In this document: positions 63,407 through 63,733 of the stretch, in pieces
How the letters are laid out: the number at the start of each line of letters is the position of its first letter
How positions within the stretch are numbered: the first letter of the stretch is position 1
Assembly (NCBI RefSeq): GCF_003334255.1
Contig: NZ_QOWU01000009.1
Length of the DNA stretch: 64,000 nucleotides
From: Escherichia coli
GTDB taxonomy: Bacteria > Pseudomonadota > Gammaproteobacteria > Enterobacterales > Enterobacteriaceae
Reading direction: 5' to 3' (one strand)
Program-made: the position numbers and the translations under genes
The notes under the pieces: generated by a model
What the model was told of the DNA's origin: nothing
Database searches by the model: none
Seen by the model: only the letters and a program-made list of their open reading frames with translations

Positions 63407-63588
63407 CAGCTTTTCCTTAGATTGAGGGTGAATAAAAAAGCCGGTACCCACAAACGTGGATACCGGCAGGTAAAGGGTTACAGTGCCGGAGGTCCGGCTG
63501 TGGGAGTTTCTGAATTGTGGTTCTGTTGTTCCCTGAATGTCTTTCTGTACGTATCTGTGCATGTTACTGACAAAGGTTATTATTAGCC

Positions 63589-63632
63589 TATTGATCGATA
63601 TAAACGATCGATAAAATAGATATCGATCGTTT
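63589..63632 (-). promoter_or_regulatory. agn43 phase-variation switch: three GATC Dam sites in the OxyR operator
   Basis: GATC at 63593-63596, 63606-63609 and 63625-63628 within ttGATCgatataaacGATCgataaaatagatatcGATCgtttt, about 190-220 bp upstream of the Ag43 ATG. Confidence 0.65.
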
Positions 63633-63733
63633 TATTCTATTGTTGAGCTATTGCACGGACAAGAGAGACAGTAACGAAAACAGCGCTTTTGTGAGCAGAC
63701 TCAGAGTCAGGGTGGGCATCAGTCACGACAGGT

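Follow-up and report, generated by a model that had tools for sequence, protein, structure and literature searches.

The 327 bp between a yeeP-like GTPase gene and agn43 (flu), at positions 63407-63733 of the window (the whole 64,000-nt stretch of Escherichia coli DNA that was analysed), are very probably (roughly nine chances in ten) the regulatory region of a functional agn43 gene, with the epigenetic switch and the leader attenuation that have both been described for K-12. As a whole, the agn43 region is already-known biology, an ordinary copy that carries a rare but apparently intact allele, and no feature in the sequence was found to contradict the explanation by a switch and attenuation. 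The bordering genes and the elements recognised between them are listed here in the direction of agn43 transcription.

63734..64000, minus strand: 3' end of the yeeP-like GTPase gene, which leaves the window (ORF listing; RefSeq for matching genes, 'GTPase family protein').
63657..63662, minus strand: -35-like hexamer TTGTCC of the agn43 promoter (sigma-70 consensus scan, 9/12 matches, 17-nt spacer; identical in K-12).
63634..63639, minus strand: -10 hexamer TAGAAT of the agn43 promoter (promoter scan; ends 6 nt before the +1 placed by homology).
63594..63630, no strand assigned: putative OxyR tetramer site (37-bp consensus register, -2..+35) that covers +1 and the whole GATC triplet (consensus scan).
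63628, minus strand: probable +1, at the G of GATC-I, where IsrC also begins (homology, the corresponding G opens isrC in NC_000913.3 and lies 222 nt before the flu ATG; alignment).
63593..63628, no strand assigned: three Dam target sites, GATC-I at 63625-28 (+1..+4), GATC-II at 63606-09 (+20..+23) and GATC-III at 63593-96 (+33..+36) (read from the sequence; in register with K-12).
63434..63628, minus strand: probable IsrC/IS102 RNA, the agn43 leader transcript after premature termination, 195 nt by K-12 homology (Rfam RF00124 and K-12 annotation).
63434..63467, minus strand: intrinsic terminator with a 12-bp stem (8 G-C pairs), a 4-nt loop and six T's (terminator scan).
63407..63433, minus strand: conserved spacer ATTCACCCTC..TAAGGAAAAGCTG with the Shine-Dalgarno AAGGA (read from the sequence; kept in all nine alleles compared).
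60287..63406, minus strand: agn43 (flu) coding sequence, intact, 1039 aa (ORF listing; RefSeq names matching genes 'autotransporter adhesin Ag43').

The interval is exactly the gap between the GTPase stop codon (63734-63736), whose ORF lies upstream of agn43 on the same strand, and the agn43 start codon (ATG at 63406, minus strand, MKRHLNTSYRLVWNH..., from the ORF listing and the sequence itself). Over its first 535 aa, the Ag43 protein encoded here was 94% identical to K-12 Ag43 in a protein comparison. Comparison with the K-12 agn43 regulatory region, which the initial annotation had proposed as a check, gave a gapless alignment at 98% identity to the K-12 MG1655 yeeP-flu intergenic region, with the -35 and -10 hexamers, the three GATC sites (+1, +20, and +33), the terminator, and the ribosome-binding site all in register. 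The K-12 region is an experimentally established Dam/OxyR phase-variation switch, in which OxyR bound to unmethylated sites keeps transcription repressed and Dam away from the DNA, while methylation blocks OxyR (PMC3764049, PMC2909390, PMC4872104, PMC13337833).

The initial annotation had seen three Dam sites within 36 bp and read them as the OxyR/Dam switch of antigen 43. The count is correct (63593-63596, 63606-63609, and 63625-63628; 36 bp from first to last base), and the identity with K-12, the shared hexamers, the base-for-base correspondence of the GATC sites and the best OxyR match in the window therefore support the switch reading by homology. When both strands of the entire window were scanned with the OxyR consensus ATAGnTnnnAnCTAT-N7-ATAGnTnnnAnCTAT (20 specified positions), the highest score, 14/20, fell at 63630..63594; only three sites in the window reached this score, the second of them being an overlapping register moved by 22 bp (63608..63572). 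A putative OxyR site is thus found, at the level of sequence, over both the GATC triplet and the transcription start. Directly upstream is a predicted sigma-70 promoter, with the GATC sites at and after a +1 that we infer from homology to lie at 63628 in this strain. The promoter-like and terminator-like sites listed above were the sole ones detected by scanning the minus strand of 63200-64000.

By analogy with the K-12 experiments, we infer OxyR binding, methylation states, transcription start, termination, and read-through in this strain as follows. Transcription of agn43 would start at the G of the first GATC from the sigma-70 promoter (-35 TTGTCC, -10 TAGAAT), and the OxyR tetramer site at approximately -2 to +35 would contain all three GATC sites. 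Where OxyR came first to unmethylated DNA after replication, RNA polymerase would be blocked and the GATC sites shielded from Dam, producing a heritable OFF state; where Dam methylation came first, OxyR would be excluded and agn43 would be ON. A strong intrinsic terminator would close the 222-nt leader 28 nt short of the ATG; transcripts stopped there would constitute the ~195-nt IsrC/IS102 RNA, and agn43 mRNA would arise solely from polymerases reading through the terminator. Neither dam nor oxyR lies within the 64-kb window; both are core E. coli genes.

A comparable competition between OxyR and Dam at GATC sites inside OxyR half-sites operates at the Salmonella/P22 gtr and opvAB loci (PMC2909390, PMC4856963). 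There, OxyR activates transcription or has a dual role, the GATC sites form two pairs (four in all), and alternative OxyR sites are located upstream of +1, whereas agn43 has a single repressor site overlapping +1 (PMC2909390, PMC3350482).

Between -35 and +42 the window differed from K-12 at four positions, carrying C at -14, G at +5, A at +37, and G at +41 where K-12 has T, A, G, and A, respectively. All of these fall outside the specified OxyR consensus positions, and the K-12 site scored the same 14/20 because +5 is an unspecified 'n' position and +37 and +41 lie outside the 37-bp core. With these differences, the switching rate or bias could deviate from that of K-12. In a stronger form, the switch would be there but functionally altered, the rare allele (+5 G, +37 A, +41 G, and the change at -14) having changed Dam kinetics, OxyR affinity or promoter strength and leaving the phase biased or locked. 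The rarity of the allele is consistent with this, the exact 76-nt switch allele of the window being present in 2 of 5426 complete E. coli genomes versus 488 for the K-12 allele, with the rare part located in the GATC-III flank (GATCAATAGG); the substitutions also shift the predicted hairpin, and the corresponding DNA inverted repeat, from GATC-II:III in K-12 to GATC-I:II in the window, and sequence flanking GATC can affect Dam processivity, as implicated for pap but not for agn43 (PMC2909390). The intact GATC sites and spacing, the unchanged OxyR-consensus score, and the frequency of +5 G elsewhere (TB06053, RIVM_C037134, TUM1886, and the Cah class) argue against an altered switch, which is considered unlikely.

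The same substitutions raise the question of the repeat itself, as the rare allele (+5 G, +37 A, +41 G) shifts a perfect inverted repeat together with the predicted hairpin. The inverted repeat could be under selection in its own right, either as DNA, through the competition between OxyR and Dam, or as RNA, through a 5' hairpin that influences stability or read-through, in which case natural alleles would set differing switching rates or read-through levels; we regard this as quite improbable. Positions +5 and +18 (63624 and 63611), in the arms of the GATC-I/GATC-II repeat, look compensatory in three alleles only, the window combining G with C, TUM1586 A with T, and K-12 the mismatched A and C. 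A terminator-like site on the plus strand (63602-63632) was rejected as a candidate, being the GATC-I/II inverted repeat followed by A/T-rich sequence.

The second layer of control would reside in the leader. The earlier estimate of a leader of about 190 nt agrees with the distance from GATC-III to the ATG (186 nt), and the full leader measured from the +1 placed by homology is 222 nt. A conserved intrinsic terminator accounts for the length of the leader, in keeping with published control by attenuation and antitermination. The terminator stem occupies 63467-63440 and the T-run extends to 63434, so that their ends lie 33 nt and 28 nt, respectively, upstream of the ATG, and the hairpin alone folded at -22.3 kcal/mol. 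An alternative start for agn43 at the in-frame ATG at 63562, which would add a 52-codon extension through the leader, was discarded, as indel alleles break the frame and the ribosome-binding site and ESPR-type signal peptide are found at 63406.

The small RNA IsrC, placed by the initial annotation in the region upstream of flu but not confirmable there, is present as judged by its covariance model: the Rfam family RF00124 (IS102 RNA, the IsrC family) matched 63630..63427 on the minus strand across all 206 positions of the model, at 246.5 bits (gathering score, 46) and E=1e-46. In the K-12 annotation it is the leader itself. In the K-12 record isrC runs from 2071317 to 2071511 and the flu ATG is at 2071539; read in the sequence, its first base is the G of the first GATC and its last base the final T of the hairpin T-run, 28 nt before the flu ATG. 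The match here has the corresponding location, lying in the gap that separates the yeeP-like gene from flu, in the orientation of flu, with an intrinsic terminator at its end. By homology, IsrC is the agn43 leader rather than a separate gene upstream of the switch. Likeness to the K-12 IsrC/IS102 RNA (RF00124; b4435) includes the full-length covariance-model match, the position relative to the ATG, and the terminator. The window differs in having one non-canonical pair in the first Rfam stem, which results from the +37 substitution, and in a predicted 5' hairpin that joins the GATC-I and GATC-II arms, not the GATC-II and GATC-III arms.

The folded leader was far more stable than shuffled controls (z = -5.1). 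In the minimum free energy folds, the leader pairs over a long range with the start-codon region, though not in the same way in the window as in K-12. Folding the leader of each allele up to the terminator loop, and again with the 3' arm blocked, revealed no conserved antiterminator; the partner of the terminator 5' arm varied between alleles, and terminator-free folds were ~20 kcal/mol worse. With no conserved alternative pairing for the 5' arm, the mechanism of read-through is therefore not explained by the sequence.

Nine aligned alleles were compared: the window, TB06053 (its closest island relative), K-12, four others, and two of the Cah class, including cah (calcium-binding antigen 43 homologue) of O157:H7. 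Two blocks were conserved across all nine, the first consisting of the -10 hexamer and the GATC switch and the second of the terminator hairpin, T-run, ATTCACCCTC, Shine-Dalgarno, and ATG. Within the first block, the -10 hexamer was TAGAAT in 8 of the 9 alleles and TAGATT in one, and GATC was kept at +1, +20, and +33 in 8 of the 9, O157 cah included. Within the second, the terminator stem and T-run were the same in all nine save for a one-sided change from G-U to A-U and changes in the loop. In the Cah class, entirely different sequence takes the place of the leader body (~+37 to the terminator) and of the DNA preceding the promoter; O157:H7 cah resembles the window in its -10 hexamer, the GATC triplet and its spacing, the terminator/ribosome-binding block, and an upstream GTPase gene, but differs in an unrelated leader body that is ~30 nt longer and in the DNA upstream of the promoter. 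A fixed switch and terminator/ribosome-binding block around a replaceable leader body illustrate selection on both layers of control throughout the Ag43/Cah family. The conservation pattern of agn43 confirms published biology, and its importance is limited mainly to annotation.

The replaced leader body also bears on whether IsrC might mainly act in trans as a small RNA in its own right, made from the agn43 promoter, with a terminator that serves the small RNA and not attenuation. IsrC is catalogued as a small RNA gene both in Rfam and in the K-12 annotation and is predicted to be a discrete, well-folded RNA that ends in a terminator. Conservation of only its two ends, however, with the body exchanged in Cah-class alleles, argues against a conserved base-pairing function, and the element always occurs directly before the start codon of an agn43/cah-family gene. 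Passages in two sources describe the leader terminator in terms of attenuation/antitermination of flu, attributed to Wallecha et al. 2014 (PMC5389530, PMC5811629), and one carries the entry 'IsrC sRNA (flu gene attenuation)' (PMC5811629); no target of IsrC was found in the literature examined. An independent small RNA is, on this evidence, very unlikely, and the attenuated leader is the preferred reading.

By count alone, the GATC triplet is statistically unremarkable: the 64-kb window contains 274 GATC sites, and three sites fall inside 36 bp at five distinct places, compared to ~2.3 expected under random placement. Its meaning derives from homology: the K-12 agn43 regulatory region matches at 98% identity and has its three GATC sites in the same register. 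A chance cluster without regulatory meaning, which the number of such triplets in the window would allow, was rejected as having next to no probability, given the base-for-base register with the characterised K-12 sites (the decisive point), a spacing kept in alleles with otherwise unrelated surrounding leaders, and the overlap with the best OxyR-consensus match of the window. The densest GATC cluster of the window is elsewhere, with six sites in 67 bp (37531-37597) inside the rlmB coding sequence, and further clusters occur at 19639-19679 (four sites), 26211-26268 (four), and 46043-46070 (three).

Two of the copies encountered possess only two GATC sites. The copy of strain C 237-04 lacks GATC-II, with CCAATAG in its place, and positions 1640-2000 of a stray contig lack GATC-III, with CGATAG there; switching could be different in such copies. 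In complete E. coli genomes, the 96-nt block of terminator, ribosome-binding site, and gene start was located 6342 times, spread over 3995 of 5426 genomes, in every case at ≥90% identity and before agn43/cah-family genes. Among the GTDB species-representative genomes, exact patterns gave 0 matches for the switch and 1 for the terminator; at this level there was no sign of the module outside E. coli-type DNA, although one genome per species and the need for exact matches give little power for near relatives. The sole terminator match was the stray contig (JAIJJM010000521.1, 2300 bp), assigned to a 'Collinsella sp.' MAG and carrying an E. coli-type agn43 regulatory region and gene start; it is probably a binning contaminant.

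The window and TB06053 were 99.4% identical over 24 kb, with 97 of the 132 mismatches of 50001-64000 located in 62500-64000, a segment that covers the agn43 5' end, the switch, and the 3' end of the GTPase gene. This segment matched the CP4-44-located copy of strain cM8a exactly or almost exactly, and the cM8a copy diverges at 60000-61250. The agn43 gene is thus a mosaic, which suggests recombination or gene conversion between agn43 paralogues, with the regulatory region carried along. Strain cM8a was the only genome 100% identical over 63300-64000; its agn43 (1926570-1929685) is annotated as a frameshifted pseudogene, and the gene in the window is intact.

The closest known system is flu/agn43 of K-12, on the CP4-44 prophage, which is alike in its promoter hexamers, GATC positions, OxyR-consensus score, terminator, ribosome-binding site, and upstream yeeP-like GTPase gene. 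Unlike the K-12 gene, the copy in the window lies in a CP4-44-like island inside ulaE, not at the K-12 CP4-44 site, and the GTPase gene, a pseudogene in K-12, is annotated as full-length in the closest relatives of the window. The Ag43 copy on this island is, from its sequence, very probably phase-variable and attenuated like the K-12 gene, so that the cells of a single culture would differ in its expression, a complication documented for work on Ag43 (PMC3764049).

The window consists of chromosomal backbone (gdx with a guanidine-II riboswitch, glyVXY, mutL, miaA, hfq, hflXKC, purA, rnr, rlmB, aidB, and ulaRG-ulaABCD), followed by the CP4-44-like island inserted in ulaE, with cbtA/cbeA, yeeS/T/W-like genes, an antirestriction gene, IrmA, a YeeR-like 840-aa ORF, agn43, and the GTPase gene. 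The ulaE reading frame opens at 50853 (MLSKQIPLGIYEKALPAG..), and after ~18 codons the AT-rich island end breaks it off (~50853-50910); the L-ascorbate operon ulaABCDEF is therefore interrupted. Positions 40000-64000 were held at ≥80% in one place by 38 of 5426 complete E. coli genomes, the ulaE-island arrangement over 24 kb being common to these genomes only. Two expected features of the backbone were also observed, a guanidine-II (mini-ykkC) riboswitch at 4817-4863 (plus strand, 50.4 bits) and a glyVXY-type array of three identical tandem tRNA-Gly(GCC) genes at 20366-20665 (plus strand).
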